NCBI GenBank assembly: GCA_023898585.1
Contig: CP060229.1
Location: 854,587-918,586, forward strand
Source of the DNA: Candidatus Nomurabacteria bacterium
Lineage (GTDB): Bacteria; Patescibacteriota; Minisyncoccia; Phycocordibacterales; UBA918
DNA: 64,000 bases
Direction of reading: 5' to 3'
Part shown: piece by piece, positions 16,920 to 58,685 of the stretch
Numbering within the stretch: position 1 is the first letter of the stretch
Layout of the letters: each line of letters begins with the position of its first letter
Notes under the pieces: model-generated
Databases searched by the model: none
The model's input: only the letters and a program-made list of their open reading frames with translations
Told to the model about the DNA's origin: nothing
Translations under genes and position numbers: made by a program

Positions 16920-18125
16920 TTAATTAATCGAGGCTACATTTTTCAGACAAATTGCCTGACAATTAAAGTGTAGGGCAGAGTCCTCAGCGCGTGTAGTATT
17001 TGATTTACAGACCACACCGCTATTATTTATGCGTTCACCTATTGATTCAAGAGAACCTTGAGAATACGAAGTTCCTCCAATCGTCGTGTACCCATTGGGA
17101 CAATCAACCTGTACTGTACACATGCTTTTACTTTTGTTCACAACGCTTCCATTTCCGCTTTCTTTATGACAGTTGTTTGCATCAAAATCTTTTGCAAACA
17201 CACCCTCGCGTATGACATAAGTGGATTGGTTGTCGACATAGTCCTTTGTAACAACCGTTCGACCTACATCACCGGCTACTGTGGACTGGCTTCTAATTTT
17301 ACCCTCCACGACCAACTTTTCTTGTGGGTTTGTCGTCCCAATCCCCACATTCCCTGTATCGTTGTAGATGTCGCCATTGCCTTTGATGGTCCAGTCGGCG
17401 TCAGCGCTACCGCCGGGGCCGGTGAAGTAAAATGTTTTACCCTCCGCCTCTAAGGTTGTTATAGACTTACCGAAACAATCTGTTTGGGAAGTATGACTCT
17501 CGCCGTTAAAACTTTTATCTGAGTTGAAGGCTACATATCTACCAACAGCCTGTCCATTTTGTGTAGTGTACAAAACTGATGCACTACCGGAAATAGCGGG
17601 GGCTGTTACTGCCGAGCCATTGGAATCAAGATAATATATCCACTTTAGATCAACGTCCCCGTCGCCTGTTACTTTACAAGAAATAGCGTCAGGCCATCCA
17701 GGTAACATAGAACTTCCTCCAGGACCACCCCCAAACGGCACAGACTGACAGATAGTCCCGTCACCGTTACAATACTCATCCGCTCCGATTTTGCCGTTAA
17801 CATCAAATAGCAGTCCGTTGGTTAGGATACCGCCCGCGCTACCAGTAAAGCTACTCAATATACCCCCTGCGCTGGTATCGAATATGATAGGACCGACTAC
17901 ACCTAATCCTAGCGGACTTGAACCATTAGCGTTTATCGTCAACCCTCCATTTTTAGTCTGCCCGTTACCAGTGGTAATCGGAGCGTTTATGTTACCGCCA
18001 GGCGCTGACGCGGTCGGAGCTGTCCACGCCAAAGCTATTTGTATGCCGGTGCCAAGTAAAAAGGTTACAACTAAAGTGAGTGCAATTTGCACCACTTTAT
18101 TCGAATATATTGATTTGGTATGCAT
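16920..18125 (-). CDS. Secreted/anchored Gly-rich protein with tail-fibre-like motif
   Basis: 401 aa; N-terminal hydrophobic anchor, Gly/Asn-rich beta region, and the motif GNVGIGTTNPQEKLVVEGKIR typical of phage tail-fibre-like/collar domains; Cys-rich C-terminus. Confidence 0.5.
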   Translation of the reverse strand: MHTKSIYSNKVVQIALTLVVTFLLGTGIQIALAWTAPTASAPGGNINAPITTGNGQTKNGGLTINANGSSPLGLGVVGPIIFDTSAGGILSSFTGSAGGILTNGLLFDVNGKIGADEYCNGDGTICQSVPFGGGPGGSSMLPGWPDAISCKVTGDGDVDLKWIYYLDSNGSAVTAPAISGSASVLYTTQNGQAVGRYVAFNSDKSFNGESHTSQTDCFGKSITTLEAEGKTFYFTGPGGSADADWTIKGNGDIYNDTGNVGIGTTNPQEKLVVEGKIRSQSTVAGDVGRTVVTKDYVDNQSTYVIREGVFAKDFDANNCHKESGNGSVVNKSKSMCTVQVDCPNGYTTIGGTSYSQGSLESIGERINNSGVVCKSNTTRAEDSALHFNCQAICLKNVASIN

Positions 18126-21233: not shown

Positions 21234-22259
21234 CTAATCAGCCAAAGCGTAGGAACCGTTGGCTAGTTTTTTGAAAATATTGGTGTCCTGAAGATTAACG
21301 AGAATGGTGTTATCTTTTACGTACCGTTCTTTTCTAACTTTATCAATCAGCTCTTCACGTGATAGTGGGCCTTCTTGGGCCAAAATTTCCCGGAGTACAT
21401 CTTTCACCACTCCGGCGGTGTAACCCCACTCAGTGAGAGCATATAAGCCACGACCTACCAAAACGAAACGTTCATCTTTGATCAATTCGTTGTGAGTGGT
21501 GGCAATATGTGCCTTGTGACCAAACAAGTCGCTGATGGTCTCAGCCACTTCGCGAAAGTGCATGGGAGAACCATGTCTTTTAACTGTGAGGTAAGCATAA
21601 TCTCGAATACCCTTCACGCGTATGTTCGGGCTGTCTGCCGGGCCCCAATCGCCAAGTGGATTACGCCCGATTTGCTTTGAAATCATTAGCCAACGCTTCA
21701 AGACACCCTCGTCGTGCTTGTCGGCGATATCAATCAGTTCGTTTCTGAAACGGTTTAGAATTTCTGACTCACTAATGAGTTCATCTCGGTTTAGATTGTT
21801 GTGAACATTGCGTAGCGCTTTTTCCACTGCTTCGGCAATTTTTCGTTCGGTAAACCAGCGGTGCTCATACTGAGGGTTCTCTTTACTTTTGTAAAAAGGA
21901 TCGCCAACCACCAGCAAAAAATACAAATGATTTCGAACTACCGGATCGTTACTTAGCTCATCAAGTAAAACATGTTCAGCGATCAGACCGCCCCCGAGCT
22001 GGTCGATTAGTTTTTGCATTTCTACGAAGAGATCGTAGTGTTTTTTGTATACATCGGATTTTTGGATCGATTGAATACCATAGTTTTCAATCTGTCGGAC
22101 TCGCTCTCTCGTTATGCCGTAAGACTGACCGATTGCTTCTAGAGTGTAGGTCTCTCCATCTTTGCCAAGCCCGTACCTTTTTTCAAGCACGTCACGAGCT
22201 CTCTCAGGGAGAACGTCCAGAAGAGTTTTGGTTATTTGTTTTGGTTTAAATGAAATCAT
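21234..22259 (-). CDS. Sigma-70 region-4 domain protein with C-terminal winged-helix-like domain
   Basis: 341 aa; N-terminal sigma-70 r4-like HTH (LPERARDVLEKRYGLG...TLEAIGQSYGITRERVRQIE); the remainder has no sigma r2/r3. Confidence 0.55.
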   Translation of the reverse strand: MISFKPKQITKTLLDVLPERARDVLEKRYGLGKDGETYTLEAIGQSYGITRERVRQIENYGIQSIQKSDVYKKHYDLFVEMQKLIDQLGGGLIAEHVLLDELSNDPVVRNHLYFLLVVGDPFYKSKENPQYEHRWFTERKIAEAVEKALRNVHNNLNRDELISESEILNRFRNELIDIADKHDEGVLKRWLMISKQIGRNPLGDWGPADSPNIRVKGIRDYAYLTVKRHGSPMHFREVAETISDLFGHKAHIATTHNELIKDERFVLVGRGLYALTEWGYTAGVVKDVLREILAQEGPLSREELIDKVRKERYVKDNTILVNLQDTNIFKKLANGSYALAD

Positions 22260-22357
22260 AAATAATTAAGTGAAGAATTGGTCATAGTCCTCAATGCGTG
22301 GCCAAATTTATAACATATCGGTCGTAATCGGTCAATGTTTTTAGTATAACACATGAT

Positions 22358-22551
22358 TAGAGCATGTCCAAAACCCTACACAAAGGAGTAAATCCTTCTC
22401 TAATATTTTGTTCCGGCTCGTCGGTTTGCAAAATTTGGTCAAAAAACCGCTATGATTTCTTACCGTACATCAGTATGGCTCGAAATTCTATCAATTTTTT
22501 GTCTCAAATTTTGCAAACCTTTGGAGCTCGGAGGGTTTTTGGACATGCTCT
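22358..22551. repeat. Nested inverted-repeat structured element (~190 bp) overlapping the leuS stop codon
   Basis: Outer IR tagagcatgtccaaaaccct (22358-22377) / agggtttttggacatgctcta (22531-22551); inner IR gtttgcaaaatttg (22424-22437) / caaattttgcaaac (22505-22518). No conserved ORF inside. Confidence 0.5.
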
Positions 22552-25339
22552 AAGAAATGATAAGGTTCAGAATTCTGCCTTGTACATAAATAATTTTTGT
22601 AATTTTATGATCTTTTATTCTGTTTGCGAGGGCTTCATTTTCATTGACTGCCTTCAGTGCTTCTTCTTCTGATGCTTCCCCCGAAATAGTTATCTCCCCT
22701 CTCATTTTGCCGTTAATTTGCACTCCGATAGTCACCGCTTCATCTTTAGTAAGGTCTGGGTCGTATGTGGGAAATTTTGCAATATGGATACTGCCTTCAT
22801 TGCCAATTTCGTGCCAAATTTCTTCGGTCAGATGTGGAGCGAAGGGGGCAAGAATCACCAAGAATTTTTTGTAGCTATCCGCAGTGAGACCGGTTTTTTC
22901 CGCCAGATTGACAAAGATCATCATCGCGCTGATGGCGGTATTAAATTTGAATTCTTTGATGTCTTCTGAAACCTTCTTGATTGTTTTATGGAGTTGTCTC
23001 GTCGTTTCATCAGGTTCGGTGTCGCTTATGTGCTCTCTCAAGCCGTTAACTCGTTCGAGAAACCGCCTTGCTCCAACCAGACCATCTTGCGACCAAGCAA
23101 TCGTGTTTTCGAACGGTCCCATGAACATTTCATAAACTCGTAAAGTATCCGCTCCCACCAAATTTACTATTTCATCGGGATTGATGACATTTCCCCATCT
23201 TTTACTCATTTTTCGTCCGTCTTCCGCCAAGATAAAGCCGAGAAATTCCAGTCTCTGGAAGGGTTCCTCTGTACTTACTACCCCGATATCGTAGAGAAAC
23301 TTGTGCCAAAAACGAGCGTAGATAAGGTGTCGTACAGCATGGTCGCCACCAACATAGACGTCAACCGGTGCCCAAAACTTCTCATTTTTCTTACTTACCA
23401 GTTCTTTAGTGTTGTGGGGGTCCATGTAGCGCAAGTAGTACCAGGAAGAACCGGCCCACTGTGGCATGGTATTGGTCTCTCGTCGGCCGGATCCGGCACA
23501 TTTCGGGCACTTTGTATTTACCCAATCCTCTATATTGGCAAGTGGTGATTGCCCGTCGCCTGCCGGCTCGTACTTCTCTACGTCCGGCAACACAACTGGC
23601 AACTCACTATCCGGTACTGGTACAGCGCCACATTTATCACAGTGAATGATCGGAATTGGCTCTCCCCAGTAGCGCTGGCGTGAAAACACCCAATCTTTGA
23701 TCTTGTATGTTTTGGTTAGTCGACCCCCTACCTTTTTGGTGATGGCGATTTTGGCTTCTTTGGAGTTCATGCCGTCAAACTCGTCGGAATTAATCAATTT
23801 ACCTAAAGCTATTGTCGGTTGATCAATCATGCTGTGAGCGAAGTCTTTTAATGAAAAAGCCCATTCATCATCTGGAATTCCTTCCAGGGAATCGAATATT
23901 TCCAATTGACCTTCATGAACTGATAAATTCGAATCGTCGACTTTATCTATGAAGTAAAAAGCATATTCTTCTCTTAAATCAGAACTAGATTTTCTAAGAT
24001 ATACGAGTCTGGGCGCTAGTTTATTTTTTATAATGTCTAATTCCAGTTCCTCATGCAGTTCTCTAGCTAGAGCTTGTTCGGGTGATTCTCCTTTCTCAAC
24101 ATGACCACCAAAAGTGCAAAGTTTATCAGGGCTGGTCGGTGCCCCTGTACGTCGCTGTAACAGGTACTTTCCTTCCCGATTCCTGATAAATGCGCCAGTT
24201 GCCTTTACTCTATTTATAGTTGGTATTTCGGTTATTACGTATCTAATCCCAATCCCAAACTTTTTCGCAAACGCAAAGTCTCGCTCATCATGCGCCGGGA
24301 CAGCCATAATCGCGCCCGTACCGTAGCTTGCGAGCACATAGTCAGCGATATACACCGGAATTGTCTCGCCATTGGCTGGATTGACTGCCGTTATCCCTTC
24401 CAGCTTCACTCCAGTTTTGTCTTTGGTTGCGTCAAGTCGATCCATTTCTTTTTTACCCTCCGCTTCTTTCACGTATGTCTCAACTTCATGCCAATTCAAA
24501 ATAACTTTACTGTATTTCTCTATAAATTCGTGCTCCGGTGCCAAAACCAAGTAAGTAGCTCCGAAAAGGGTGTCCGGACGAGTGGTAAAGACTGTTACTT
24601 TCCCACCAATCGACAATTCAAAGTCAATTTCCGCTCCCTCACTACGCCCGATCCAATTGCGTTGCGCCTCTTTAATATGTTCCGGCCACTCCAGGGTATC
24701 CAAATCTGCAAGCATCCGATCGGCGTACTCCCGGATTTTTAATACCCACTGTCGCATTGGTTTTTGCTCCACTTTACTCTCGCAACGCTCGCAGGTACCG
24801 TCCGCCTCCAGATCCTCATTAGCCAGTCCTGTCTGGCAACCGGGACACCAGTTGATCGGCTCATTGCTTTCGTAAGCCAGACCTTTTTTGAAAAGTTGAA
24901 TAAAAATCCACTGTGTCCATTTGTAATAATTTGGGTCTGTAGTATTGATTTCTCTTTCCCAATCATAGTCAAAGCCCAACACTTCCAACTGCTCTTTAAA
25001 GCGTGCGACGTTTTTCTCGACCGCCACGCGCGGATGGGTTTTGTTTTTGATGGCGAAGTTTTCTGCCGGCAGACCAAAAGCGTCCCAGCCCATCGGGTGT
25101 AGTACTTCGTGTCCGGTCATTCTCATGAAACGGGAGTAAATATCGGTCGCGATATAGCCTTTGGGGTGTCCAACGTGCAGTCCTTCGCCTGACGGATACG
25201 GAAACATGTCCAACACAAATGCTTTCGGTTTGCTGGTGTTTTCGTTAGTTTTATACAGTTTGTTCTCGCGCCAATTTTCGCGCCATTTGCTTTCTATTTG
25301 TTTGTGGTCGAAACGTTTATGCATACAAAATCTAGGCAC
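22550..25339 (-). CDS. leuS: Leucine--tRNA ligase with a NUDIX hydrolase domain inserted in the CP1 editing domain
   Basis: 929 aa; HVGH (LHVGHPKGY), KMSKR, editing-domain motifs TTRPDTLFGATYLVLAPEH and GTGAIMAVPAHDERDFAFAKKFGI, and an anticodon-binding domain. Residues ~376-510 (nt 23810-24214) form a Nudix fold with the Nudix box GGHVEKGESPEQALARELHEELEL. Confidence 0.9.
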   Translation of the reverse strand: MPRFCMHKRFDHKQIESKWRENWRENKLYKTNENTSKPKAFVLDMFPYPSGEGLHVGHPKGYIATDIYSRFMRMTGHEVLHPMGWDAFGLPAENFAIKNKTHPRVAVEKNVARFKEQLEVLGFDYDWEREINTTDPNYYKWTQWIFIQLFKKGLAYESNEPINWCPGCQTGLANEDLEADGTCERCESKVEQKPMRQWVLKIREYADRMLADLDTLEWPEHIKEAQRNWIGRSEGAEIDFELSIGGKVTVFTTRPDTLFGATYLVLAPEHEFIEKYSKVILNWHEVETYVKEAEGKKEMDRLDATKDKTGVKLEGITAVNPANGETIPVYIADYVLASYGTGAIMAVPAHDERDFAFAKKFGIGIRYVITEIPTINRVKATGAFIRNREGKYLLQRRTGAPTSPDKLCTFGGHVEKGESPEQALARELHEELELDIIKNKLAPRLVYLRKSSSDLREEYAFYFIDKVDDSNLSVHEGQLEIFDSLEGIPDDEWAFSLKDFAHSMIDQPTIALGKLINSDEFDGMNSKEAKIAITKKVGGRLTKTYKIKDWVFSRQRYWGEPIPIIHCDKCGAVPVPDSELPVVLPDVEKYEPAGDGQSPLANIEDWVNTKCPKCAGSGRRETNTMPQWAGSSWYYLRYMDPHNTKELVSKKNEKFWAPVDVYVGGDHAVRHLIYARFWHKFLYDIGVVSTEEPFQRLEFLGFILAEDGRKMSKRWGNVINPDEIVNLVGADTLRVYEMFMGPFENTIAWSQDGLVGARRFLERVNGLREHISDTEPDETTRQLHKTIKKVSEDIKEFKFNTAISAMMIFVNLAEKTGLTADSYKKFLVILAPFAPHLTEEIWHEIGNEGSIHIAKFPTYDPDLTKDEAVTIGVQINGKMRGEITISGEASEEEALKAVNENEALANRIKDHKITKIIYVQGRILNLIIS

Positions 25340-26463: not shown

Positions 26464-26666
26464 GGAAGCGCGGCCGAAGTGGCTAAAAATATGTGTGAGA
26501 GACAAGCTGGAGCACGAGGCATATCGGGATATGTTGAGTGCGATGCGTGCGTTTCGTAGCCATATTTTAGCCACGACGACCGGAAATGAATTAGAATAAC
26601 ATTATTTTCATGGTGAGACTTCAGACAGTTTCACCTAGCCGAAGCGCGGCCGAAGGCCGCGCTTCC
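26464..26666. mobile_element. MITE-like palindromic repeat, copy A (inverted relative to copy B), flanked by a 15-bp direct repeat
   Basis: ~160-bp body (26480-26640) whose reverse complement is ~90% identical to 40498-40639. Flanked by the direct repeats gaagcgcggccgaag (26465-26479 and 26641-26655). The right-hand copy is part of a perfect GC hairpin gaagcgcggcc-gaa-ggccgcgcttc, 22 nt downstream of the ychF stop. Internal IR gtggctaaaaatatg / catattttagccac. Confidence 0.55.
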
Positions 26667-26688
26667 ATGCTCAATCAAATAGACGTTT

Positions 26689-39621: not shown

Positions 39622-40461
39622 TCAAAGTCTTTTTTTGAGAATACCCATCGCCCCGTAAAGACCGGCTTCTTCACCGAGCTCTGCCATGGTGATGTGAGGA
39701 GTCGGAACAAAACCGTCAAGAACGGCGACCGTATACTTACGAATAGCGTCTATCTCAATTCTCGGGTCACCGGTTATCATCGAACCACCAAGAACAATCA
39801 CGTCCGGCGACCAGTACATGATCGTGTTTCTAAGACCCTGAGCGAGATACTCCGCGAGTTCGTCCCACACCACGTCACTTTGTGGAATTTCATAAGCCTT
39901 CATGCCAAATCTTTCCGCCACTGCTGTGCCGGAAACTAAGTTTTCTAAGGTTGGTGTTATATCATCTCCCAAGACCGTTCGGTCTATGTCAAGAATTTGG
40001 TGACCAGGTTCGAAACCTACGCTGGCCATATCAATTTCGCCGTCCTCAATTTTAACCCCCCCTACCCCGCTACTTATTGTGTGGAAAGCGACCACATCAA
40101 GACCTTTGCCGGCTCCGTAAACCGCCTCACCCAATCCGGCGATAGCTGAGTCGTTTTCCAAAAAAATCTCCACCTTATAGTGTTTTTTAAGAGCATCCAC
40201 AACTGACTTACCGGCCCATTTAGGAATTAAACTGTCGTTTGTGATACCGGTTTTTTCTTCATTTAAAGGCCCACGAATTCCTCCAGCAATAGCTGTTACT
40301 TTATCGTTTGTCAGCTTCTTAACTGTTGCCACCATTTGCTCGATGCCTTTGTCAAATTCTTGTGGGGTGTTAAAAGATTCTGATTTATCTAGAGTTTTTA
40401 AATCCCCACTTACTCCCATTCGAATTTTAGTCCCCCCGATATCAAAAAGTATGTATGTCAT
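39622..40461 (-). CDS. ROK-family sugar kinase (glucokinase-like)
   Basis: 279 aa; N-terminal ATPase motif ILFDIGGTKIRMGV and a glycine-rich ROK region (ENDSAIAGLGEAVYGAGKG). Confidence 0.6.
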   Translation of the reverse strand: MTYILFDIGGTKIRMGVSGDLKTLDKSESFNTPQEFDKGIEQMVATVKKLTNDKVTAIAGGIRGPLNEEKTGITNDSLIPKWAGKSVVDALKKHYKVEIFLENDSAIAGLGEAVYGAGKGLDVVAFHTISSGVGGVKIEDGEIDMASVGFEPGHQILDIDRTVLGDDITPTLENLVSGTAVAERFGMKAYEIPQSDVVWDELAEYLAQGLRNTIMYWSPDVIVLGGSMITGDPRIEIDAIRKYTVAVLDGFVPTPHITMAELGEEAGLYGAMGILKKRL

Positions 40462-40497
40462 GTTATGGATTATATCTTATCATGGATAATAGTTTGA

Positions 40498-40740
40498 GAA
40501 ACTGTCTGAAGTCTCACCATGAAAATAATTGTTATTTAAATTCATTTCGGGTCGTCGTGGCTAAAAATATGGCTACGAAAATACGCTTCGCACTCAACAT
40601 ATCCCGATATGCTTCGTGCTCCAGCTTGTTTCTCACCACTAGAGTACTTCCGTCTTCATAGTCGCTAATCTCTCCTTGAAGACTAGGTCGCGCTCATATT
40701 TTTAGCCACTTTGGACTCCGATGAGACTTCAGACAGTTTC
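40498..40740. mobile_element. MITE-like palindromic repeat, copy B (243 bp) with 19-bp terminal inverted repeats
   Basis: TIRs gaaactgtctgaagtctca (40498-40516) / tgagacttcagacagtttc (40722-40740); internal IR gtggctaaaaatatg / catatttttagccac; core is ~90% identical to the reverse complement of 26494-26640. The right TIR overlaps the pgi stop codon by 1 nt. No conserved ORF. Confidence 0.6.
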
Positions 40741-41999
40741 TAAGACCTGAGACCAAGAATGGCCCGGGTCTTGATTTTATAAAGTTCAACATTTGGCTGA
40801 TCGAAGGCGTTGACATTCATAAGCTCCGCTACATACATTGTTTCCAACATACGCATACCCATAAAAAGGCCGAGAGCGTATGGCAAATCTTCAGTAAATA
40901 TTGTTGAGCGGTATGGCAACTGACGTTCTCTGTAAGCTTCTATCACCCCTCCATAAATAGCTGTTGCTACCTCCTCCGCATCAAACCTTCCAAAAATTTT
41001 TGACATTCCTTTTTTAGGAATATCGTAGTTAGCGGAGTCATCGTCGAAAGTGACAAAATCAGTATATACTCCTTGAAAACCGCTGAAATATAATTGTCCA
41101 ACTGAGTGTAGTTCCGTCGGGGTCGAGACTGTAGGTAAAAAACCGCTCTTGACTAGCTTTCCCGCACGGTCTTTTTCTTTGCCAATACTTTCCGCAAATA
41201 GTTGTCTGTACCATGCTCCCAGCTTATACAATCGCGACTCAAAGGCGAAAAAATTATAGTGCTTGAAATTCTTTACCATGTAGTGTTGTAGCTTGACTGC
41301 GCTTTCTGCTACCACAGACTCAAACTCATCCTCCAGAACATCAACCACTCCCGAGATAAAGGAGTCGGTATCGTGACCTAAAATCGCTAGAGGCAGGAGC
41401 CCGACTTCTGTCGCAACAGAGTATCTACCACCAACGATTGTCGGCATATCAACGATGTTTGCACCCAATCTTTTCCCTGTCTTCATAAAATCCGTCCCGG
41501 GGTTGCCGATAAAAATCGTTTGACCGTATATAGTTTTACTGAACCTTTTTTCTAAGATATCTAAAATAATTCCGGCGTTGACCAGAGTTTCAGTGGTATT
41601 GCCCGATTTGCTCACAACACAAACAGCTATTTTTTTTACCGAACGAACACTTTGCAGTTCCTCGACCAACAAACTCATTTTATGGGTAGAGACATGATCC
41701 AATGAATGAAGTTTCACTTTACCTTTGTCGAGAACTTCATGAACAGCTTCCGTACCCAGATTTGAACCACCAATTCCAACCAGCACTAGGTGTTGCACGC
41801 CTTTAAACTGCTTTTTGATATTATCAACGAGATCGTGTACTTGCGGATTTCTTGTATGCACGAGAGAGTATTCAGGTCTACAGTTGTCATTGTCTTCCCT
41901 AACTTTCTTCACTTCATCTCGATACTTCTTCAACTTTTTCATCCCTACCTGCTGTGTTTTCGGAGTGAGTGAATTAATATCAAAATAAGAAAAATTCAT
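40740..41999 (-). CDS. pgi: Glucose-6-phosphate isomerase
   Basis: 419 aa; PGI signature region (HLVLVGIGGSNLGTEAV) and SIS-domain organisation. Confidence 0.8.
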   Translation of the reverse strand: MNFSYFDINSLTPKTQQVGMKKLKKYRDEVKKVREDNDNCRPEYSLVHTRNPQVHDLVDNIKKQFKGVQHLVLVGIGGSNLGTEAVHEVLDKGKVKLHSLDHVSTHKMSLLVEELQSVRSVKKIAVCVVSKSGNTTETLVNAGIILDILEKRFSKTIYGQTIFIGNPGTDFMKTGKRLGANIVDMPTIVGGRYSVATEVGLLPLAILGHDTDSFISGVVDVLEDEFESVVAESAVKLQHYMVKNFKHYNFFAFESRLYKLGAWYRQLFAESIGKEKDRAGKLVKSGFLPTVSTPTELHSVGQLYFSGFQGVYTDFVTFDDDSANYDIPKKGMSKIFGRFDAEEVATAIYGGVIEAYRERQLPYRSTIFTEDLPYALGLFMGMRMLETMYVAELMNVNAFDQPNVELYKIKTRAILGLRS

Positions 42000-43817: not shown

Positions 43818-43902
43818 TCCTCCGAAGGGTTACCCTTCGCGAAGGGTAACCCTTCGGGATGTAAATTACCCTTCGCGAAGGGTAACCCTTCGGGATGTAA
43901 AT
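43818..43902. repeat. Tandem 36-bp palindromic direct repeats (2.3 copies)
   Basis: Unit tacccttcgcgaagggtaacccttcgggatgtaaat at 43831-43866 and 43867-43902, plus a partial copy at 43818-43830; each unit contains the perfect palindrome acccttcgcgaagggt. Lies between convergent genes. Confidence 0.6.
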
Positions 43903-50569: not shown

Positions 50570-53500
50570 TTAAAATACCGGTACCGCTACATAGGTTATT
50601 GTTGTAGTGTAGTCACCAGCCGGCTGAAGCTCTCTGGCTTTGATTCTGTATATGATGTTTTCTACGTCGACTGAGGCTATGGAACTGTACATTATTTCAT
50701 CCAATGAAGTACTGAGAGAAGCGTACGAATCAAGTGGAGCAAACCTGGCCGAGCCACCTTCGAGTGTAGCGTCGGTGGTGTGGTAGCCGGAACAACTAAT
50801 CGCACCTCCTGTGCATCCAGTAGACCAACCGACCGGTGATGCGTTTGTGCCGGTTATCGGTATGATTTGGTTTCCATAGGAATCAAGTAGTTGCTGATCC
50901 ACATACTTAAAGACCTGATAACCTTCGATCGCGTTAGTATCGACAGTAATTTGCTGTGCCACTTCAACATCGGTATCAAGAGGCAGTGACCCGAAATCGA
51001 CAGAAGTTGCCGTCGTGGTAGCGTCTGTCGTTATTCCTGCTATCGAAGTGTTGGCGTCGACACCATCGATGGTAAAAGTAAGAGAGGCACTTTCTCCAGC
51101 CAGGCTGGGGTTTGAAGTACTCGCGAAGACCACTTCGTTATTAGCAAGATCATACAGTCTGAAGTGATAAACCCTGCCGTAATTACGTTCCACATTGGTG
51201 TACTTAAGAGCAAACTCGTATTCCGTCTTATCTCCTCCATTATGTGTGAAGCCGTTGTAGTAATAAGAACTTTCATTATGAGTGCCACATCCGGCCCCGA
51301 CACTTGCCACGCAACTATCAGAATCGGAAAGTACCGCCGTTGTAATTACTTCATTGTCAACTCCTCCACCATCTTCATAACACCAAACTGAACTGGCCAC
51401 ACACGAAGATGTGGCGACAACATCTTGAGCATCACTGAAATCAGCCTGTTCAGCAAACTGTATTTTGAATCGAGCATTCACTTGGGTCAAGTTCTTTATC
51501 TCGTCCAAAGTGACTCTCAACTTAACCGAGTCGTCTTTTAAAACATTGGTTGGAGCTATGTTCTCCGGTGCTAGATCAACGGTTGGTGTTTCGTTTGTCT
51601 CATCGCCGTACCAACGCCAGGAAGTGATGACCGGTGTGTAACCTTCTGTCCTTATTTCAGGGTAATAAAGATAACCATCGAGTGGAGTGTCGTCAGACTT
51701 AATCATGCGAAAACAGTAAGTGGTTCTTTGTGCGGCTCCGTTTTGCTCAATTAACCAATCGTATTCAACATCTTCACCATCATAAACCGGATACTGATTG
51801 GCTAACGACGGGTTGTTTTCGGTGTAGCGCCCGGCACGATCTGATATTGAAATTAGCAAATCGCCTCCGGTTGGCGGATTGCCCGAAAGTGAAACACCGT
51901 CTGTGATTCCTGGCGCATCGTATCCTCTCCAAATCGCACCACTTCCAACTGAACCGACATCAGTCCATGAGACAACTGCCGAGCAAGTTGTGCTTCTAAC
52001 AGCGTATTGCAATTTTGTCGTCACCAGACCAGCGGGTAAAGTAGCATTACTTACTTTCAAACTCATTCTTATGCGGATTCTGTCACCATCAGCCAGTGGT
52101 GCATCAAGCGCCCCAATGGAAGTATTCTCTCCAAGATTGTCAATTCCCGGTGGCCATGGATCAGTCGGTTTCAAAGCGTCGTTATCCACATAAAAACGAT
52201 AGTAATTTTGTCGCACTGCGAGGTCTGCGGCTGGCCATTGAACAACCTCGGTTCGGTAAGCTAATACTTGACCGGTGTCACTACGCCACAATTCATAGGT
52301 GCTGGTCGACATTATAGTAGCTCCGGCTATCATTCTTGGATAATTATTTCCCGTTCCGGTAACGGACGTAGTCAAAAATATGGATGCGTTATTGGTTGCA
52401 TTGAGAGGCGTCGGGATGTTAACCGAGATACTAAGTGGCTCTGAACCGCCGGTTGTGTTTCCATTACTTCTTTGTACGAGCATTTCTCCGGTACTGGTCT
52501 GGGTGTTTTCGATAATCCAGGCTACAGAAACGTGATTGGAGGTAAGTAGAGCTTGCGGTTCCAAAAGAAATGACACAGCGCCAATACTCGATAGCCATAC
52601 TTCATGACCGAAGTCGGCCAAGCCAAGACTACTGGCGTATCGTTTTTGCGAATGAATGAAAGTGCGAGCTAGGCTATTAACGGCGGTTATGTTTTCAGTC
52701 TCCGTCACTCCGACCGCTGAATAAGAATGCTCAACTCTCTGCACTTTCCAATTTAGTCCCACGAATTCAACTACAGCGTAACTCACGTAACCATCATTAG
52801 CTCCGGTGTCATTACGAGTAAAGACCGGTTCATTTGTTGAAGATGACCAAGAAGCGGTCGACTGATGCCCGTAGCCTTCAGATCGGTTACCGCCGGTGTG
52901 TTGTTGTCCTGTAATAAAGACAACAATGTCGCTGTCATCAACTACGGTTGAAACTGCGGTACCTGTCCCTATAGTATCCGCCACACCATAATTTATAAGA
53001 CTTTGACTTCTAACGAAAATTTCGTTATCTCCACCCGGTGGACCAATATATTCAACAATCTCCCAAGCTACATAAGTATTATTTATAGAGTCACTGTCTC
53101 TCGCAATCGTGAAACTCGTTTCTATATTCCAAGGGTTAGAAATATAAGCGGCATAGTCGTCGGTGTTTTGGTTCCCTCCATTAGAGTCTTTACCAGCACC
53201 TGTGTAATGTGAATTCGTGATCCTAACAAAGGCACTCGTTGAGGCACTCGGTGCGACATAATCTGTACCGGCTGTTAATGTGACACCAGAGCCACTCACT
53301 ATATTGACTCCCCGCTGAATTTTAAAATCTCTTCTTGCTTCTATCGACACTTCAGCGTACTGGTCGTACTGCAAGAGAGGATCACCATTTTGAGTTGCTC
53401 TAAAACAAAAAGTAGTTTCGTAAGGCGTGTCGTTTGTAGTTGTAATGGCATACTCAAGATCAACGTACTGAGTCTGCGTTAAGGTGGTGGTAGCTGAAAA

Positions 53501-56500
53501 TGATTCAGTATCTCGAACGCCACCGTTTGAACCTAAGAAGGTTTTTCCACCCGGGTTGCTTACTCCACCGTTTGCCACAGCTATGTCAGTCGTGGTTTCA
53601 CCGTTGGTGAGATTGGGAGAATCGTACATATCCCAGGAAATTCCTCCACCGTCTGCATCGCTCCAAACCGCAATCGCTTCGCAAGTGGTAACTTTAATAC
53701 CATATTCGAGGCCGTATTTGTGAGGAATTGAGCTGGTTGAGCCCTCGTTCGAAAGACCCAGCCTCAATCGAATTGAGCTGTTTTTACCAAAATCTAGCAA
53801 AGGGGTGTCTTCCGACCCTCCGGTAGCTGAAGTGGCCCCAGTCTCGTTTCCGTCGTCGTTTCGCCAGTGATAATGTATTTGCGTAACAATTCCACCGGAG
53901 AGCGTGGTTGAGCTAGTTATGTCGAGAGCGGTTGATGGAGCGACTGAACCTCCGTCTGTGACCAAAACATCGGACGATCCTGAATTGATGATAATGTTAA
54001 GAGTTTCACCATTGTTAGCTGTGTTAGTAACATCAAGGACTGGATATACGCACATCGCCTGGGTAGTTGTGATGCCAACCGAGCCGGTAAAAGTGGCAGT
54101 TCCGTCAGGACCACTAAAAGAGGAGAAAGCACTTCCGAATTGCGAGTCAGATATGGAAAAAGTTTCGCTGGCACAATCGTATGGAGAGCTGGTATCAAGA
54201 TCGTAGTAAAGTCTGATATTTTCCACTCCACTTGTGCCGTCAACAGTGCCGTTCTCGGTAATAGTTATACTTGTTACATTTCGTGATGAATTGTTTTCTT
54301 TTATAACAAAAGCTCCACCAACATGAAAATCGGCTGTCGGTATATCGACCGTGGCGTACTGCGTGCTAGTGGCACTTACTCGTACATCAGCAGCGATCGT
54401 AGCCTTGGGGTAATTGGTATATGCTGGCAACTCTTCGCCATTGTTTGTTAGTCGAAAGCAATAGGTATTACCTTCGGTAGCTGAGGTGGAAGCGATTATT
54501 GAAAACTCCACTTCTGTCCAGTTAGTAGGTAAAAATGTCAGTGGACCAAGTGTGGAAGAAGTATCACGTAGTCCACCATTGGGGGTCAACAAAACAGTAT
54601 TCTCATTTGTCACACCACCGATACCAACACTAATGTCCGTCGAGTTCGACCCGTCTGTTAAAAATGTCGAATCATACATGTTCCAATCGTCATCAGTGGC
54701 TCCGACATCTGTCCAGCCGGTCGCAACATCACAAGTTGCGGTGTTAAGCGCGTACTCAAGTCTTAATGTGGTTGGAAAAGATGAAGTTGAACCTTCATTG
54801 GAAATACCGAGTCGCAATCTCCTTGGTGTGTCTTGCTGGAGCGCAGTCAATGAAGTGTCTTCTATCCCACCAGTCCTAGATGTGGCACCGGTTTCGTTAC
54901 CATTATCATTTCGCCAATGGAAGTGAGTTTGAGTAAGATCTGAATCGAGTATATTTGTTGTTCCGGACAAAACCTGCACCGTATCAGGAACGGCAGTCAC
55001 CGACCCTGATACAAGAACATCTGTTGCCGGATTGGAAATTTCAATTTCCATATTACTTCCGTCAACCGCCGATTTGAGAACGTCCAACACAACATAAACG
55101 CACATTGACTGTGTTGGCGAAATACTGACGGAGCCAGTGAAAGCTGAAGTTCCGTCTGCACCAGAAAAACCGTTGGCATCAGTACTACCAAATTGTGACT
55201 CAGAGCCGGAGTATGATTCGCTCGCGCAGTCGTAGGGAGAACTGGTGTCAAGGTCGTACTTCAACTTTATATTATTCAAGCCACTTGAAGCATCTACCGT
55301 ACCGTTTTCTGTAATCTGAATATTGGTGACGTTTCGTGCTTCAGTAAACTCTCGAATTACGAATTGCCCACCCACATACTGATCGGTGGTACTTGCTCTC
55401 ATTGTCGTTGCTTGTGTGCCGGAAGCAGACACAACGGTTTTAGGGGAGAGGTCAGCAACTGTATCGCCGAACACATCATCAACGTTAGCTTCAAACCATG
55501 ACAAAAATAATCTTTGAATTGACGAGTAATTAAATGAAACCCCGTACATATCACCGGAAACAGTATTGACAGGACCTTGTTCAGCGCCCCAACTGGTCAT
55601 GGCGGAGGTCGACGTTGCCCAATACACGTTAGCTGTAGATGCACTGTTAATGGTGGTACGGGCAGAATAAGCAACGTAGACGGTCTCTGTATTTTCATCA
55701 ATTGTAAGGGAAACGGATGTTAAACCACGGGTATCGTTGGTAATGATGTCGGGTAGATTTGACCAAGAACCACCTGAATATTTCGCTACTCTAATATCGT
55801 GGTCAGCGGTAGTGAAGGTGTTAGCATCAGCGATATAAGCAAGGAAAACATCTCCGGAAACTGGGCTCCTTACCGCCGACATTTGGAAATCGTAGGTTGA
55901 GCTTTCAACGGCATTCGCATCAATAGTAAGCCAGTTTGTGTCCCAACTTGTGCCATTCCATACCTTGGAACGCATGTCGTTGGCACTAATATCACGATTG
56001 ATGAGAAGTATGTTTCCACTGTCTAGAGGTAGGAGCATAGTAGCATCTTCATCAGCGTCCATGAATGTGCCATCGCCAACTTCAACCCAGTTCGTTGCTG
56101 TGCCACAGGTAGCAGAACAAGAAACAACAAAGCGATCGCCATTGTCAGACACTGATATATAAAGGATCCCGTTTGTACCTTTTGTTAGAGAATGATTAGC
56201 CGTAGCAGCACTTAGTGACATTGGACTTTGGCTCAGTACAGCACTTACAGGACTTGAGCCGAGCAACAAAGTATCACTAGACACATCAAGACGATTGTAC
56301 CAAATATCATCGTCACCCGAATCCATCGTGGCGATGTGTATGTAGGATCCAGTATCACCCGGTGTCCACTGATCGTACCAAACAACAATTGCTTGACAGT
56401 CGGTCTGTGAATCCACAAGTACCTGTGTCCCCCATGTCGCCCCACCGTCTGTAGTTTTCTTGTAGACACAAGTGCCGTTTGTTCCAGTTCCTCCGACACC

Positions 56501-56707
56501 ATCTCGATAAAATTTATATCCAACTTGATCCGATATAAACACTGAGGACGGTTGAACTTGGTTGTGAGAAGGGCCGTTTGTGCTCGGAGTGTCATCAATA
56601 ACTACTTCTGCTGCTAAAGCATAAGGAAATAGTGGCCAACTCAAAAATTTGTCTGCGCCTGAAAAAACAAAAGTTGAAATAAGTATAAAAGTAATTAACT
56701 TTTGCAT
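50570..56707 (-). CDS. Giant secreted surface protein (~2045 aa): BNR/sialidase-like N-domain, four repeated ~230-aa modules, conserved C-terminal domain
   Basis: Probable start is the Met of MQKLITFILISTFVFSG (signal peptide; GGTGG-like RBS upstream). BNR/Asp-box TTDGGATWGTQ. Repeated modules signalled by FHWRNDNGNETGATS / HYHWRNDDGNETGATS / YYRFYVDNDALKPTD / SWRWYGDETNETPTV, each followed by RLRLG(I/L)SNEG... and ...(T/Y)(Y/F)CFR... Duplicated beta-sandwich segments (YDLDTSSPYDCASE...). C-terminus ...YRIKARELQPAGDYTTTITYVAVPVF. Confidence 0.6.
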   Translation of the reverse strand: MQKLITFILISTFVFSGADKFLSWPLFPYALAAEVVIDDTPSTNGPSHNQVQPSSVFISDQVGYKFYRDGVGGTGTNGTCVYKKTTDGGATWGTQVLVDSQTDCQAIVVWYDQWTPGDTGSYIHIATMDSGDDDIWYNRLDVSSDTLLLGSSPVSAVLSQSPMSLSAATANHSLTKGTNGILYISVSDNGDRFVVSCSATCGTATNWVEVGDGTFMDADEDATMLLPLDSGNILLINRDISANDMRSKVWNGTSWDTNWLTIDANAVESSTYDFQMSAVRSPVSGDVFLAYIADANTFTTADHDIRVAKYSGGSWSNLPDIITNDTRGLTSVSLTIDENTETVYVAYSARTTINSASTANVYWATSTSAMTSWGAEQGPVNTVSGDMYGVSFNYSSIQRLFLSWFEANVDDVFGDTVADLSPKTVVSASGTQATTMRASTTDQYVGGQFVIREFTEARNVTNIQITENGTVDASSGLNNIKLKYDLDTSSPYDCASESYSGSESQFGSTDANGFSGADGTSAFTGSVSISPTQSMCVYVVLDVLKSAVDGSNMEIEISNPATDVLVSGSVTAVPDTVQVLSGTTNILDSDLTQTHFHWRNDNGNETGATSRTGGIEDTSLTALQQDTPRRLRLGISNEGSTSSFPTTLRLEYALNTATCDVATGWTDVGATDDDWNMYDSTFLTDGSNSTDISVGIGGVTNENTVLLTPNGGLRDTSSTLGPLTFLPTNWTEVEFSIIASTSATEGNTYCFRLTNNGEELPAYTNYPKATIAADVRVSATSTQYATVDIPTADFHVGGAFVIKENNSSRNVTSITITENGTVDGTSGVENIRLYYDLDTSSPYDCASETFSISDSQFGSAFSSFSGPDGTATFTGSVGITTTQAMCVYPVLDVTNTANNGETLNIIINSGSSDVLVTDGGSVAPSTALDITSSTTLSGGIVTQIHYHWRNDDGNETGATSATGGSEDTPLLDFGKNSSIRLRLGLSNEGSTSSIPHKYGLEYGIKVTTCEAIAVWSDADGGGISWDMYDSPNLTNGETTTDIAVANGGVSNPGGKTFLGSNGGVRDTESFSATTTLTQTQYVDLEYAITTTNDTPYETTFCFRATQNGDPLLQYDQYAEVSIEARRDFKIQRGVNIVSGSGVTLTAGTDYVAPSASTSAFVRITNSHYTGAGKDSNGGNQNTDDYAAYISNPWNIETSFTIARDSDSINNTYVAWEIVEYIGPPGGDNEIFVRSQSLINYGVADTIGTGTAVSTVVDDSDIVVFITGQQHTGGNRSEGYGHQSTASWSSSTNEPVFTRNDTGANDGYVSYAVVEFVGLNWKVQRVEHSYSAVGVTETENITAVNSLARTFIHSQKRYASSLGLADFGHEVWLSSIGAVSFLLEPQALLTSNHVSVAWIIENTQTSTGEMLVQRSNGNTTGGSEPLSISVNIPTPLNATNNASIFLTTSVTGTGNNYPRMIAGATIMSTSTYELWRSDTGQVLAYRTEVVQWPAADLAVRQNYYRFYVDNDALKPTDPWPPGIDNLGENTSIGALDAPLADGDRIRIRMSLKVSNATLPAGLVTTKLQYAVRSTTCSAVVSWTDVGSVGSGAIWRGYDAPGITDGVSLSGNPPTGGDLLISISDRAGRYTENNPSLANQYPVYDGEDVEYDWLIEQNGAAQRTTYCFRMIKSDDTPLDGYLYYPEIRTEGYTPVITSWRWYGDETNETPTVDLAPENIAPTNVLKDDSVKLRVTLDEIKNLTQVNARFKIQFAEQADFSDAQDVVATSSCVASSVWCYEDGGGVDNEVITTAVLSDSDSCVASVGAGCGTHNESSYYYNGFTHNGGDKTEYEFALKYTNVERNYGRVYHFRLYDLANNEVVFASTSNPSLAGESASLTFTIDGVDANTSIAGITTDATTTATSVDFGSLPLDTDVEVAQQITVDTNAIEGYQVFKYVDQQLLDSYGNQIIPITGTNASPVGWSTGCTGGAISCSGYHTTDATLEGGSARFAPLDSYASLSTSLDEIMYSSIASVDVENIIYRIKARELQPAGDYTTTITYVAVPVF

Positions 56708-56837
56708 ACGCAAAAAACCACCTTTTTTGTGTGCCCAAAAAAACATGATATGTGGTTATATTTTACTCTATAAACTACAAAAATGTGGTTCTGGTAGTGG
56801 AAAATGTTACTTCATGACACCAATCGTTATTCCTTTA

Positions 56838-58685
56838 CTAGTCGCCCTGGTTGATTGCTGTACTAGAAGAACCAGATTCGTTTGTTGGCTGAATAATCAA
56901 GTCGTAATCAGTCAGTTCCAAGAACTGTTGATCTTCAGTGGTTTTCAGCGATGTACTAGATAATTGCATATCATCCGGTTCATCGGCGGTAGAACTGCCG
57001 TTAGCTGAAGCCTGCTTGAGATTTAGAGTTTCAGCTTCATCAATCTCTCCGACACCCGAGGTACTAGAGCCAGTAACATTCTTTGTTCCATCGATATTGA
57101 ACTCACCTTTACTTGAAGATTTGTTTTGAATAAGAGCTCTTGTCTCACCTGTCCCATCAGCATCTGGAATCTCAACCGGATTATCAGCCGGTCGAGAAGC
57201 GATGGGCGCGGAGATTCCCGTGTTAGGATCAAATCCTTGCGTTACAACGTCACCATTGTCGTACATAGTGTCGTATACAAGCACAAAGCGTGGATTTGCT
57301 ATAACACCCCCTTCGTAGCCATTAATAGTTAAAGTCTCACCACTCTTGAGTGAATAAACCTTGGCTTCTTGCTCTTCCAAGCCTAGCACGCTCCAGAGAA
57401 CATAGCCGTCATCAATCGCCGGAGCAACATCTTGAGTCAGATTATCTGTCAATTGGTCAGTGTATGTGCCATCAAACATCATTATCTCCCAATCATTACC
57501 GTCCCAAGCTTGCCACACCACACCTTCTTTTGAGACTTTTGGCTCCATGTTGTTGGTGCGTGAAAATGTCAGCTGGTCTTCTTTTTCTTCTTTTATGTCG
57601 TATAAGATAATTTGGTACCTGCCATCTATCTGTCTTTGCCACACTACTTGCATTGATTCGGCGTTGTAGTGAGGAGAAGTATCTTCGTACTCATTGTCAG
57701 TTAATTGTTTTACTTCACCCATCGACGTACGCAAGAAAATTTCCATATTTGAATTGGCGCCCAAATCAGCGTACACCACAGCGTTCAAATCTATTCCGGT
57801 TTCCGTATTAACACTACAGTGGTAAGTTCCATCACCAATGGCAACACATGACTGACGGTTGAATTGATAATAATTATCTTCAGTAACTAGACTCTGCGCC
57901 TCAACCTGATTAATTTGTTGAGGAGCAAGATCGTCGATAATTCCAGTCAGGTCAGTATCTTGTGTTTCTGTACTATCGGCACCTGTCGAAGAAGCAGAGA
58001 AAGAAACATGGTCATCCAGTGATGAATCAGCACCAACGGTTGTTGTCATCAGGTCTGAAGAACTCGCCGATGAACTATCATTATCACTATACGAATTTGA
58101 GCTAGTACTCGATGATTCTGTTTCACCCGTATCACTATTACTCTCCGAACCAGTTTGAGTAGTTGTTGACACGCTGGTTTGAAGGAGCAACGATTTGTTA
58201 CTACTACTAGCTACTTTACTTGAAGTGGCAAAAGTTTGTTTAGTAGAAGAAGCAGTTATATTGCTAGATTGAATATCAGCTTGGACATTCGTGTTTACAA
58301 CATTGTTATTAATGGAAGTTGACGAATTTTTAGTGTTTTTTAAGAGCGAGTCTTCGATTGTTGTTGCTGGCTCATTATCGATATCGTCATCTAACGTGGA
58401 TGCTTCAATTGATTCATCTGAATCTCTTATTGAATCATTTATGGTAACAGTTTCTGCAGATTTTGATGAGGCTTGTAAAGCAACCGATTCAGCAACTGGT
58501 GAATTTTTTTCAACATCAACAGTAATAGCATCTTCACTCGCAAAGGCTTTATGAATTGGTTGAATCAAAAACGAAATAAAGAGAGTTAAAACCAAAACAA
58601 CCGAAAAGCCACTGTTAAAGGTAACAGCATAAATAAATGCGGCGGACCGCTTATTATTCTGATATAGCTTTGGTTTGTACCTCAT
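56838..58685 (-). CDS. Membrane-anchored Ser/Thr-rich protein with TolB-like beta-propeller domain
   Basis: 615 aa; N-terminal TM; ~200-aa low-complexity Ser/Thr/Asp tract; C-terminal repeated W/D-rich blades (QVVWQRQIDGRYQIILYD...VVWQAWDGNDWEIMMFDG...YVLWSV). Confidence 0.5.
   Translation of the reverse strand: MRYKPKLYQNNKRSAAFIYAVTFNSGFSVVLVLTLFISFLIQPIHKAFASEDAITVDVEKNSPVAESVALQASSKSAETVTINDSIRDSDESIEASTLDDDIDNEPATTIEDSLLKNTKNSSTSINNNVVNTNVQADIQSSNITASSTKQTFATSSKVASSSNKSLLLQTSVSTTTQTGSESNSDTGETESSSTSSNSYSDNDSSSASSSDLMTTTVGADSSLDDHVSFSASSTGADSTETQDTDLTGIIDDLAPQQINQVEAQSLVTEDNYYQFNRQSCVAIGDGTYHCSVNTETGIDLNAVVYADLGANSNMEIFLRTSMGEVKQLTDNEYEDTSPHYNAESMQVVWQRQIDGRYQIILYDIKEEKEDQLTFSRTNNMEPKVSKEGVVWQAWDGNDWEIMMFDGTYTDQLTDNLTQDVAPAIDDGYVLWSVLGLEEQEAKVYSLKSGETLTINGYEGGVIANPRFVLVYDTMYDNGDVVTQGFDPNTGISAPIASRPADNPVEIPDADGTGETRALIQNKSSSKGEFNIDGTKNVTGSSTSGVGEIDEAETLNLKQASANGSSTADEPDDMQLSSTSLKTTEDQQFLELTDYDLIIQPTNESGSSSTAINQGD

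Follow-up and report, generated by a model that had tools for sequence, protein, structure and literature searches.

A probable new family of non-coding miniature inverted-repeat elements between housekeeping genes of Paceibacteria

Genomes of the candidate phyla radiation (CPR, or Patescibacteria) are about 1 Mb in size, are densely packed and, in most descriptions, carry little mobile DNA. In a 64,000-nt stretch of a Candidatus Nomurabacteria genome (contig CP060229.1 of assembly GCA_023898585.1; hereafter the window, numbered from its first nucleotide), a 243-bp repeat with terminal inverted repeats (TIRs) lies between pgi and a gene encoding a ROK-family kinase. This repeat (copy A) is very probably a real, non-coding transposable element of the miniature inverted-repeat kind (MITE) and of a new family that recently jumped into gaps between housekeeping genes of Paceibacteria (CPR) genomes. 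The family shows most of the features by which a bacterial MITE is defined, and by sequence it belongs to no named family. Full-text literature searches, with incomplete coverage, returned no report of MITEs in CPR/Patescibacteria. A MITE family would extend a known class in a solid but unsurprising way.

Among bacterial elements, the nearest in appearance is the Correia element of Neisseria, which has 26-bp TIRs and duplicates TA. Correia elements (CREE/NEMIS) are MITEs of 100-200 bp with long perfect TIRs and no known parent, are co-transcribed near genes (PMC10969869, which also reviews the general features of MITEs), and, as here, include operon-embedded copies and come in a long and a short form, distinguished by an internal segment. 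Their TIR stem forms double-stranded RNA that is cleaved by RNase III (PMC10969869). The hosts are unrelated, however, and RNase III cleavage, promoters and integration host factor (IHF) sites have been demonstrated for Correia elements, whereas the present family is known from sequence alone.

Mechanistically, the closest analogy would be a Tourist/IS5-type MITE, as suggested by the T-W-A target. Like the elements described here, Tourist-like MITEs (e.g., mPing), with their PIF/Harbinger and IS5 (IS1031-group) parents, are short and non-coding, have TIRs and occupy AT-rich intergenic sites; a 3-bp T-W-A target would be a further likeness. The target duplication of PIF/Harbinger elements and Tourist MITEs is 5'-TWA-3' (PMC4482050), and the IS1031 group of the IS5 family uses a three-nucleotide target (PMC2516522). 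The link is through the target site only; the host is a CPR bacterium, and the interior forms a conserved nested hairpin instead of consisting simply of two ends joined together.

Two further comparisons were made. ERIC, RUP, BOX and RPE-type repeats are also intergenic imperfect palindromes with stable stem-loop transcripts, found at 3' gene ends and inside operons (PMC10969869), but they have no sequence relationship to the present family, in which insertion polymorphism is clear and the 19-bp ends are sharply conserved. In size (180-245 nt) and in a level of covariation typical of a curated family, it resembles the structured RNA families of Rfam 15; unlike them, the elements match no model, and the copies are insertions in both orientations without consistent transcription signals of their own.

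Insertion at orthologous sites

The rplJ locus is the decisive case for insertion. A contig from a metagenome-assembled genome (MAG) of another Paceibacteria lineage (L008; its L10 homologues bear the name Paceibacterota) has a member of 184 bp that lies 13 nt upstream of rplJ. The site is empty in eight contigs (L045-L052; four MAG and four ENA assemblies) whose L10 is 99% identical to that of L008, and the spacer measures 561 nt in the filled versus 373 nt in the empty allele. On the sense strand the filled allele reads cctgatc-TTA-[GAAACTGTCTG...CAGATAGTTTC]-TTA-atagatagatATG, the member sitting between cctgatcTTA and TTAatagatagatATG(rplJ). The empty allele is cctgatcTCAtagatagatATG, with the sense strand reading cctgatc-TCA-tagatagatATG. 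In the sequence displayed, the flanks of the two alleles are identical over ~85 nt upstream and ~30 nt downstream. When L045 9960-10000 is set against L008 2297-2316 and 2494-2510, the empty allele has TCA-TAGATAGAT where one copy of the filled allele's duplication would give TTA-ATAGATAGAT; this 2-nt difference falls exactly on the insertion point, and the flanks are otherwise identical.

Orthologous sites without copy A were found in relatives whose PGI is 68-74% identical (L029, L030, L031-L037 and L038). There, pgi and the ROK gene overlap by 4 nt (cTATGAc) and have no spacer, and the gene order LDcluster4-PGI-ROK-Band7 is kept; the sources of PGI homologues include Candidatus Pacebacteria, Paceibacteria, Nomurabacteria, Kaiserbacteria and Parcubacteria, which marks the window as Paceibacteria-type CPR DNA. 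Among the relatives compared, only this species has the 278-nt spacer, which is mostly occupied by copy A. Since copy A is 100% identical in contigs of five other samples, it is not an assembly artefact; it is a fixed, complete copy.

A third site lies 3' of ychF and holds copy B. The window (43% GC) is nearly identical to contigs of MAG GCA_020428745.1. In that MAG (contig L054) copy B is absent, and a GC-rich hairpin is intact and followed directly by the sequence found after B in the window. A third strain (L002) has yet another sequence. This spacer is hypervariable among strains that are ~99-99.9% identical (window 26633-26688; L002 8881-8966; L054 1-60): the window has the GC hairpin and copy B; in GCA_020428745.1 B is missing, the hairpin is intact and the 20 nt upstream have diverged; and L002 has an unrelated terminator-like hairpin followed by ...GCCTTCGGCATAGGTGAAAAGTAACGGGGTTACTTTTCAC, with only TTCGGC(A)TAGGTGAAA in common with the window.

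The boundaries of the elements coincide with their TIRs. Homology between A and B begins exactly at the first TIR base (GAAACTG), and in contig L042 copy C, a diverged member in the window, is joined to a wholly different flank at the breakpoint TA|GAGCATG. In this ENA assembly (a k141 contig; positions 1-537 compared with the window from 22553 onward), the leuS side of C joins an unrelated 140-aa open reading frame (ORF) plus a terminator hairpin not present in the window. Either the DNA was rearranged at the edge of the element, or a second, near-identical copy of C gave rise to a chimeric join.

Three copies are visible in the 64-kb window with the covariance model, so this genome carries several. 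Three Logan contigs (L040, L041 and L044) begin 30 nt inside C (27 nt of element plus TAA), and contigs L022-L024 end 27 nt inside A, or 30 nt when the TTA flank is counted. We take Logan contigs to be built with k = 31, in which case 30 nt equals k-1, as expected at a repeat. In addition, the two ends of MAG contig L054 fall at the B site and at C. These contig ends and bounds, together with the alternative flank in L042, indicate that there are more copies than the three. An active MITE family in CPR bacteria would be a marker for strain-level variation and would explain recurrent contig breaks in MAGs of these organisms.

The element is mobile: there is insertion polymorphism, orthologous sites are empty, the boundaries fall at the TIRs, and the same TIR recurs with different interiors in other Paceibacteria contigs. 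The first-pass annotation had proposed either a MITE or a family of structured small RNAs, and these observations support the former. It had also regarded as refuting a finding of only two copies without a transposase partner, in combination with conservation patterns of a regulated RNA (or vice versa); three copies and indirect signs of more were found, and no transposase has appeared so far.

The trinucleotides next to the elements may mark a preferred target. In the five complete copies of the A and C types, T-N-A is present at 8 of the 10 flanking positions. The flank pairs are TTA/TTA in L003 and in L008 (rplJ sense strand), TGA/TAA in A (40495-40497 and 40741-40743), TTA/TAA in C (22357-22359 and 22551-22553), TTG/CTA in L005 and CTA/TAA in D; in both A and C the two flanks differ by one base. 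Given the T-W-A target signature of PIF/Harbinger elements and the three-nucleotide target of the IS1031 group, we infer mobilization by an IS5/PIF-type DDE transposase. Supplied in trans, this enzyme would recognize the ~19-bp TIRs and carry out cut-and-paste transposition into T-N-A targets (mostly TTA or TAA) with a 3-bp duplication, as in IS5 (IS1031-group) and PIF/Harbinger elements.

Where genes are packed this closely, insertions would be expected to survive only in the few bases that separate them, which would account for copies that either lie on stop codons (in L003 the TAA itself; in A and C, TA followed by the TIR's G) or precede start codons by 7-36 nt (D, the mini member, L008, L005 and A). 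The simplest explanation of these positions is a T-W-A target, with insertions inside genes being selected against in a tightly packed genome. MITE insertions would then be tolerated at just two kinds of site, on stop codons and a short distance upstream of starts, sometimes splitting genes that overlap in relatives.

Mobility by a single-stranded or RNA-guided route is very unlikely. The element would in that case be moved by a hairpin-recognizing Y1 transposase (REP/RAYT or IS200/IS605-like), or by a recombinase that uses the structured RNA of the element. Internal stems that covary while their sequence is free, the strand asymmetry described below and the fact that no DDE transposase was found nearby would suit this route. 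However, the long perfect TIRs that are identical across hosts, the T-N-A flanks and the apparent TTA/TTA duplication are hallmarks of DDE enzymes, and none of the copies has a Y1 transposase, TnpB or IS110 gene next to it. To our knowledge, IS200/IS605, REP and IS110-type elements lack such TIRs and target duplications, which also counts against this route.

Anatomy and distribution of the family

Complete members are non-coding, 180-245 bp in length and bounded by ~19-bp TIRs of the type GA(A/G)..TGTC..AA, mostly GAAACTGTCTGAAGTCTCA (degenerate form with flank: T-N-A GARNNTRTCYNRAA). Core-bearing members follow one plan, consisting of a TIR, a spacer with a small hairpin, an inner stem of 15-24 bp, a conserved block, the return arm, a short spacer and the second TIR. 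The conserved block reads GGCTAC..CGCTTCGC..hairpin..GTGCTCCAGCT, in which the central hairpin has 4 bp and 5-6 bp. The inner stems are wholly different in sequence between members (GTGGCTAAAAATATG, CCAAAACATTGAAATTT, GGTTTGCAAAATTTGGTCAAAAAA and CGCGAGGGTCGTTTCGCG).

For copy A, the unit length, the perfect 19-bp TIRs, the inner 15-bp repeat and the end at the pgi stop are as previously annotated; on the minus strand the TAG stop of pgi takes its G from the outermost base of the TIR (40740). Extended to 25 nt, the TIRs are still 92% complementary. The 19-mer, allowing up to 3 mismatches, occurs 3 times in the window versus 0.06 expected.

Copy B had been taken for a second, inverted copy. It is inverted (26495-26632 against 40498-40636) and has the inner repeat (arms 26480-26494 and 26561-26574), but it is not a full copy, having a single TIR and lacking the 58-nt segment of A. 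Likewise, both copies had been placed immediately 3' of a gene, which holds for A at the pgi stop but not for B, 56 nt past the ychF stop. The 15-bp direct repeat that brackets B is half of a GC-rich cUUCGg hairpin (26641-26666) 3' of ychF. Copy B is one-ended and probably immobile. A database look-up for the 196-aa ORF downstream of B returned nothing on record.

Copy C (191 bp), which the first-pass annotation had missed, was detected by a whole-window repeat search and has the same nested architecture as A. It is a member of a second subfamily. Its TIR arms (GAGCATGTCCAAAACCCT / GAGCATGTCCAAAAACCC) differ at 2 of 18 positions and are related to the TIR of A (GAGCATGTCCAAAA versus GAAACTGTCTGAAG), with the subterminal motifs TTCCGGCTCGTC and TTTGGAGCTCGG in common. 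The inner inverted repeat spans 22423-22446 / 22496-22519, and the central hairpin is CCGTAC-ATCA-GTATGG. An outward-facing, promoter-like site (window 22343-22370, minus strand) straddles the edge of C: a -35 TTGGAC within the TIR and, after a 17-nt spacer, an extended -10 TGTTATACT in the flank form a TTGGAC-17-TATACT hybrid directed toward a sigma-70-region-4/HARE-HTH gene (21234..22259). The leuS gene that C abuts (window 22550-25339, minus strand) encodes a leucyl-tRNA synthetase with a NUDIX domain (Pfam PF00293, residues 378-478) after the editing domain, and the domain is present in strain contigs too. We know of no leucyl-tRNA synthetase architecture with an inserted NUDIX domain.

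Related or identical TIRs occur in at least four other contigs. An exact 19-mer scan of metagenomes yielded three loci, of which two are real. One (L003) is a 201-bp member with perfect, identical TIRs and TTA/TTA flanks immediately after the pnp stop; the other (L005) is ~183 bp in length and lies 20 nt upstream of smpB. The third (L004), a single GC-rich match, is probably due to chance. A degenerate 19-mer scan of genome contigs gave 11 loci, against roughly 17 chance matches by our own estimate; a partner TIR was present in L008 only, and the others were single matches in unrelated taxa.

A covariance model built from six members found two more (Table 1), the subfamily D element and an 87-bp mini member (hereafter D and mini). 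The host of the latter is related to that of L008, the L10 proteins of the two being 85% identical. The TIR arms differ at no position in A and L003, at one in L008, at two in L005 and at 2 of ~22 in D. All members outside the window adjoin housekeeping genes. The loci range from 43% to 56% GC, and the L008 element has 43% GC in a contig of 56% GC.

The syntenic DNA of the PGI relatives yielded no members with the model in ~56 kb of non-redundant sequence (L029-L032 and L038; ~98 kb if the near-identical L033-L037 are counted), and the distribution is therefore patchy. A 25-mer (TIR plus 6 nt) had no match in genome contigs. In viral contigs, the A-type TIR had one chance match without a partner TIR, and neither the C-type TIR nor the core motif had any. 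A blastn search of A against PLSDB plasmids gave nothing meaningful.

Table 1. Positions of elements, their parts and adjoining genes (window coordinates unless a contig is named)
Feature	Position	Strand	Remarks
Copy A, complete (243-bp putative MITE)	40498..40740	+ (model orientation)	Covariance model 181.7 bits
Left TIR of A, 19 bp, GAAACTGTCTGAAGTCTCA	40498..40516	+	
Inner inverted repeat of A, 5' arm, 15 bp, GTGGCTAAAAATATG	40557..40571	+	Pairs with 40695-40709; covaries across the family
Central hairpin of the A core, GCAC-TCAA-CATAT-CCCG-ATATG-CTTC-GTGC	40590..40619	+	Within conserved block 40583-40636
58-nt segment, copy A only	40637..40694	+	Extra stem-loop GTCTTCA...TGAAGAC; not present in B or any other member
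Inner inverted repeat of A, 3' arm, 15 bp, CATATTTTTAGCCAC	40695..40709	+	
Right TIR of A, 19 bp, perfect, TGAGACTTCAGACAGTTTC	40722..40740	-	
pgi ORF (Pfam PGI)	40740..41999	-	
ROK-family kinase	39622..40461	-	
Copy B, one-ended	26480..26632	-	92% identical to A over 140 nt; covariance model 122 bits
Sole TIR of B	26614..26632	-	
15-bp direct repeat GAAGCGCGGCCGAAG bracketing B	26465..26479 and 26641-26655	+	
Copy C, 191-bp diverged member	22360..22550	+	Covariance model 149 bits; abuts the leuS TAG stop
Subfamily D member, TIR GAACCAATCTTAAAATAAAT	L045 1228-1416		Covariance model E = 3e-12; 7 nt upstream of a prepilin peptidase gene
Mini member, 87 bp, TIRs GAAATTGTCTGGAATCTCA / TGAGATTACAGATAATTTC	L053 3029-3111		49-nt interior without the conserved core; 7 nt upstream of a start codon

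Fold, coding capacity and the RNA level

The interiors of the members differ in sequence, and a rod-like nested hairpin is kept throughout. Relative to shuffled sequence, folding of copy A reaches z = -8.8 on both strands, and that of copy B z = -5.2 and -6.9 on its two strands. In a seven-sequence alignment, which was fitted to the model and includes TIRs that are inverted repeats by definition, 91.6% of the pairing cells are paired versus 70% in shuffles and 31-42% with slid partners. Compensatory changes occur in 37 of the 46 pairs. They affect the inner stem at every pair, the central hairpin at most of its pairs (helices 4 and 5, where pairing is kept in this way) and, overall, the non-terminal helices 3-5.

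No ORF is conserved in start, frame or length in six-frame translations of the members (87-243 bp), in agreement with the earlier annotation. A coding reading was considered for a LEHEAY-like peptide on the sense strand of A, B, L008 and D, and was rejected: in L008 it has no start (a stop lies directly upstream), its ends vary, and it overlaps the covarying hairpin. This pseudo-peptide, (L/V)EHE(A/P)Y...S..K, comes from the best-folding strand of the core (reverse strand of 40583-40636 and its equivalents in B, L008 and D), and its differences from L003 are at third codon positions that are compensating positions of the hairpin. Hairpin covariation can thus mimic coding conservation.

Strong structure (z = -8.8) with covariation, a terminal stem that is invariant across divergent hosts, and strand asymmetry are what would be expected of stand-alone structured small-RNA genes, immobile and with pairing ends, comparable to Y RNA or 6S-like RNAs. 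We consider this hardly credible, and the small-RNA half of the first-pass proposal is not supported in that form. The element is present or absent between 99%-identical strains with a 3-bp direct repeat, it is inserted between genes that overlap in all relatives, and A and B have opposite orientations in one genome. The neighbours differ at every locus, so that the genomic context is not conserved, and mini and one-ended derivatives exist. Promoter and terminator scans of the members gave no consistent signals. For the whole window at the gathering threshold, and for A, C, L008 and D at E <= 1 or 10, searches with Rfam 15 returned only a tRNA-Ala and chance-level matches, and no family that fits any member. 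Small-RNA genes would predict conserved synteny of copies across genera and promoter-driven primary transcripts that start and end at the element ends; neither was seen.

Other structured elements were also considered. A retron msr-msd was rejected, as the neighbours are pgi/ROK, ychF, leuS/sigma-like, pnp, smpB and rplJ and no reverse-transcriptase (RT) domain was found among the window ORFs scanned. An integron attC site (R''/R' core sites RYYYAAC ... GTTRRRY around an imperfect palindrome after a cassette ORF) was rejected because the ends GAAACTG...CAGTTTC misfit GTTRRRY and the neighbours are housekeeping genes in conserved order. Resemblances to hammerhead ribozymes, diversity-generating retroelements (DGR) and REP/RAYT were dropped, their defining features being missing.

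The two strands of the elements are not equivalent. Of the 7 core-bearing members, 6 are more stable by 4-20 kcal/mol, and richer in G.U pairs, when folded as the reverse complement of the model orientation (8 G.U pairs versus 1 in both A and L003). The better-folding strand is the sense strand of the flanking genes in six members (A, C, D, L003, L005 and L008) and not in B, and it has a purine-rich internal loop beside the central hairpin (GAAG/UUGA, GAA/AGA, AAG/UGA or GAG/UAA). GC skew is negative in the model orientation in all members. The asymmetry could reflect selection on co-transcribed RNA or, equally, compositional strand bias or orientation-dependent survival of insertions, among seven members of which two are closely related.

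Since members lie within operons, they must be co-transcribed, and by analogy with Correia elements the perfect 19-bp terminal stem would be a plausible RNase III substrate in the transcript. A MITE that also works at the RNA level is possible, if rather unlikely, and would extend rather than exclude the best explanation. In such an element the rod-like fold would be under selection and the transcribed strand would form long double-stranded RNA, which might, for example, stabilize 3' ends or be processed by RNase III so that adjacent cistrons become uncoupled. The excess of pairing over shuffles and the compensatory changes argue for it, as do the greater stability and sense orientation of the G.U-rich strand, its purine-rich loop, and the cutting of Correia TIR stems in mRNAs by RNase III (PMC10969869). 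However, the 6/7 orientation bias is not significant (two-sided p ~0.13), and the sense-strand excess of G.U pairs could stem from the compositional or mutational strand bias seen in the negative GC skew. Furthermore, A and B are not independent observations, the alignment behind the pair counts was fitted to the model, and the 87-bp member persists without the core. If the conserved fold does act in RNA, the elements would be a mobile means of altering operon processing.

A bolder version is unlikely. Here the strand-biased rod, with its invariant 19-bp closing stem and purine-rich loop, would be a functional RNA riding on a mobile element, either as a self-spreading RNase III/processing module that rewires operon expression in minimal CPR genomes or as an RNA involved in the element's own mobilization, in genomes with apparently no resident transposase.

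Search for a transposase and other features of the window

Several observations weigh against a canonical MITE inserted by a DDE transposase. Among the ~46 window ORFs scanned against Pfam (E <= 1e-5), no transposase, integrase or reverse-transcriptase domain was found. Fetched DNA totalling 251 kb, of which roughly one third came from unrelated chance-match contigs, contains TIR pairs (TNA-GA...TC-TNA) separated by 0.06-3.5 kb that enclose MITEs only. When genome, metagenome and viral collections were scanned for the exact 19-mer, all matches were single or lay in elements of MITE size; a parent with slightly altered ends would be missed by an exact match, and with 64 kb of this genome covered the negative evidence is weak. 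The target duplication is also uncertain: the flanks are identical in 2 of the 5 complete copies, which is not beyond chance given T-N-A on both sides, so that the trinucleotide could be part of the element itself. Moreover, the empty rplJ allele reads TCA-T and not the expected TTA-AT, which could be an excision footprint or a polymorphism. Besides copy A, the pgi-ROK spacer holds ~41 nt without counterpart in relatives, and copy B, with one TIR and a 15-bp flanking repeat, is unlike a canonical insertion. Finally, the conserved internal structure and strand asymmetry exceed the needs of a simple MITE made of two fused insertion sequence (IS) ends.

The single 19-mer matches are about as many as our rough chance estimate. 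Many accepted MITEs, such as Correia elements, are likewise without a known parent. A MITE family in these bacteria raises the question of which transposase moves the elements, and the setting, minimal genomes without a visible transposase, is mildly surprising.

Other features of the window and of related contigs were recorded. A 2058-aa ORF (window 50570-56746) and ORFs of 400-620 aa at 3566-4900, 4924-6156, 15544-16911, 16920-18125 and 56838-58685 have no Pfam match at E <= 1e-5 and look like CPR-specific proteins. In a MAG related to that of L008, an intergenic inverted pair of short tandem repeats with a GC-rich centre (L045 19600-19690; CATAAAGTT x3 ... ACTTTATAA x2-3) gave a weak covariance-model match (E = 0.025) and was judged not to belong to the family.

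An intergenic gap of the window (43822-43901) contains a GC-rich palindromic unit of 36 nt (TTACCCTTCGCGAAGGGTAACCCTTCGGGATGTAAA) in two tandem copies after a partial copy, forming hairpins of the cUUCGg type. Contig JAGQMH010000008.1 of a related MAG starts inside this repeat, at window position 43867, and the unit may represent a second, REP-like class of repeats.

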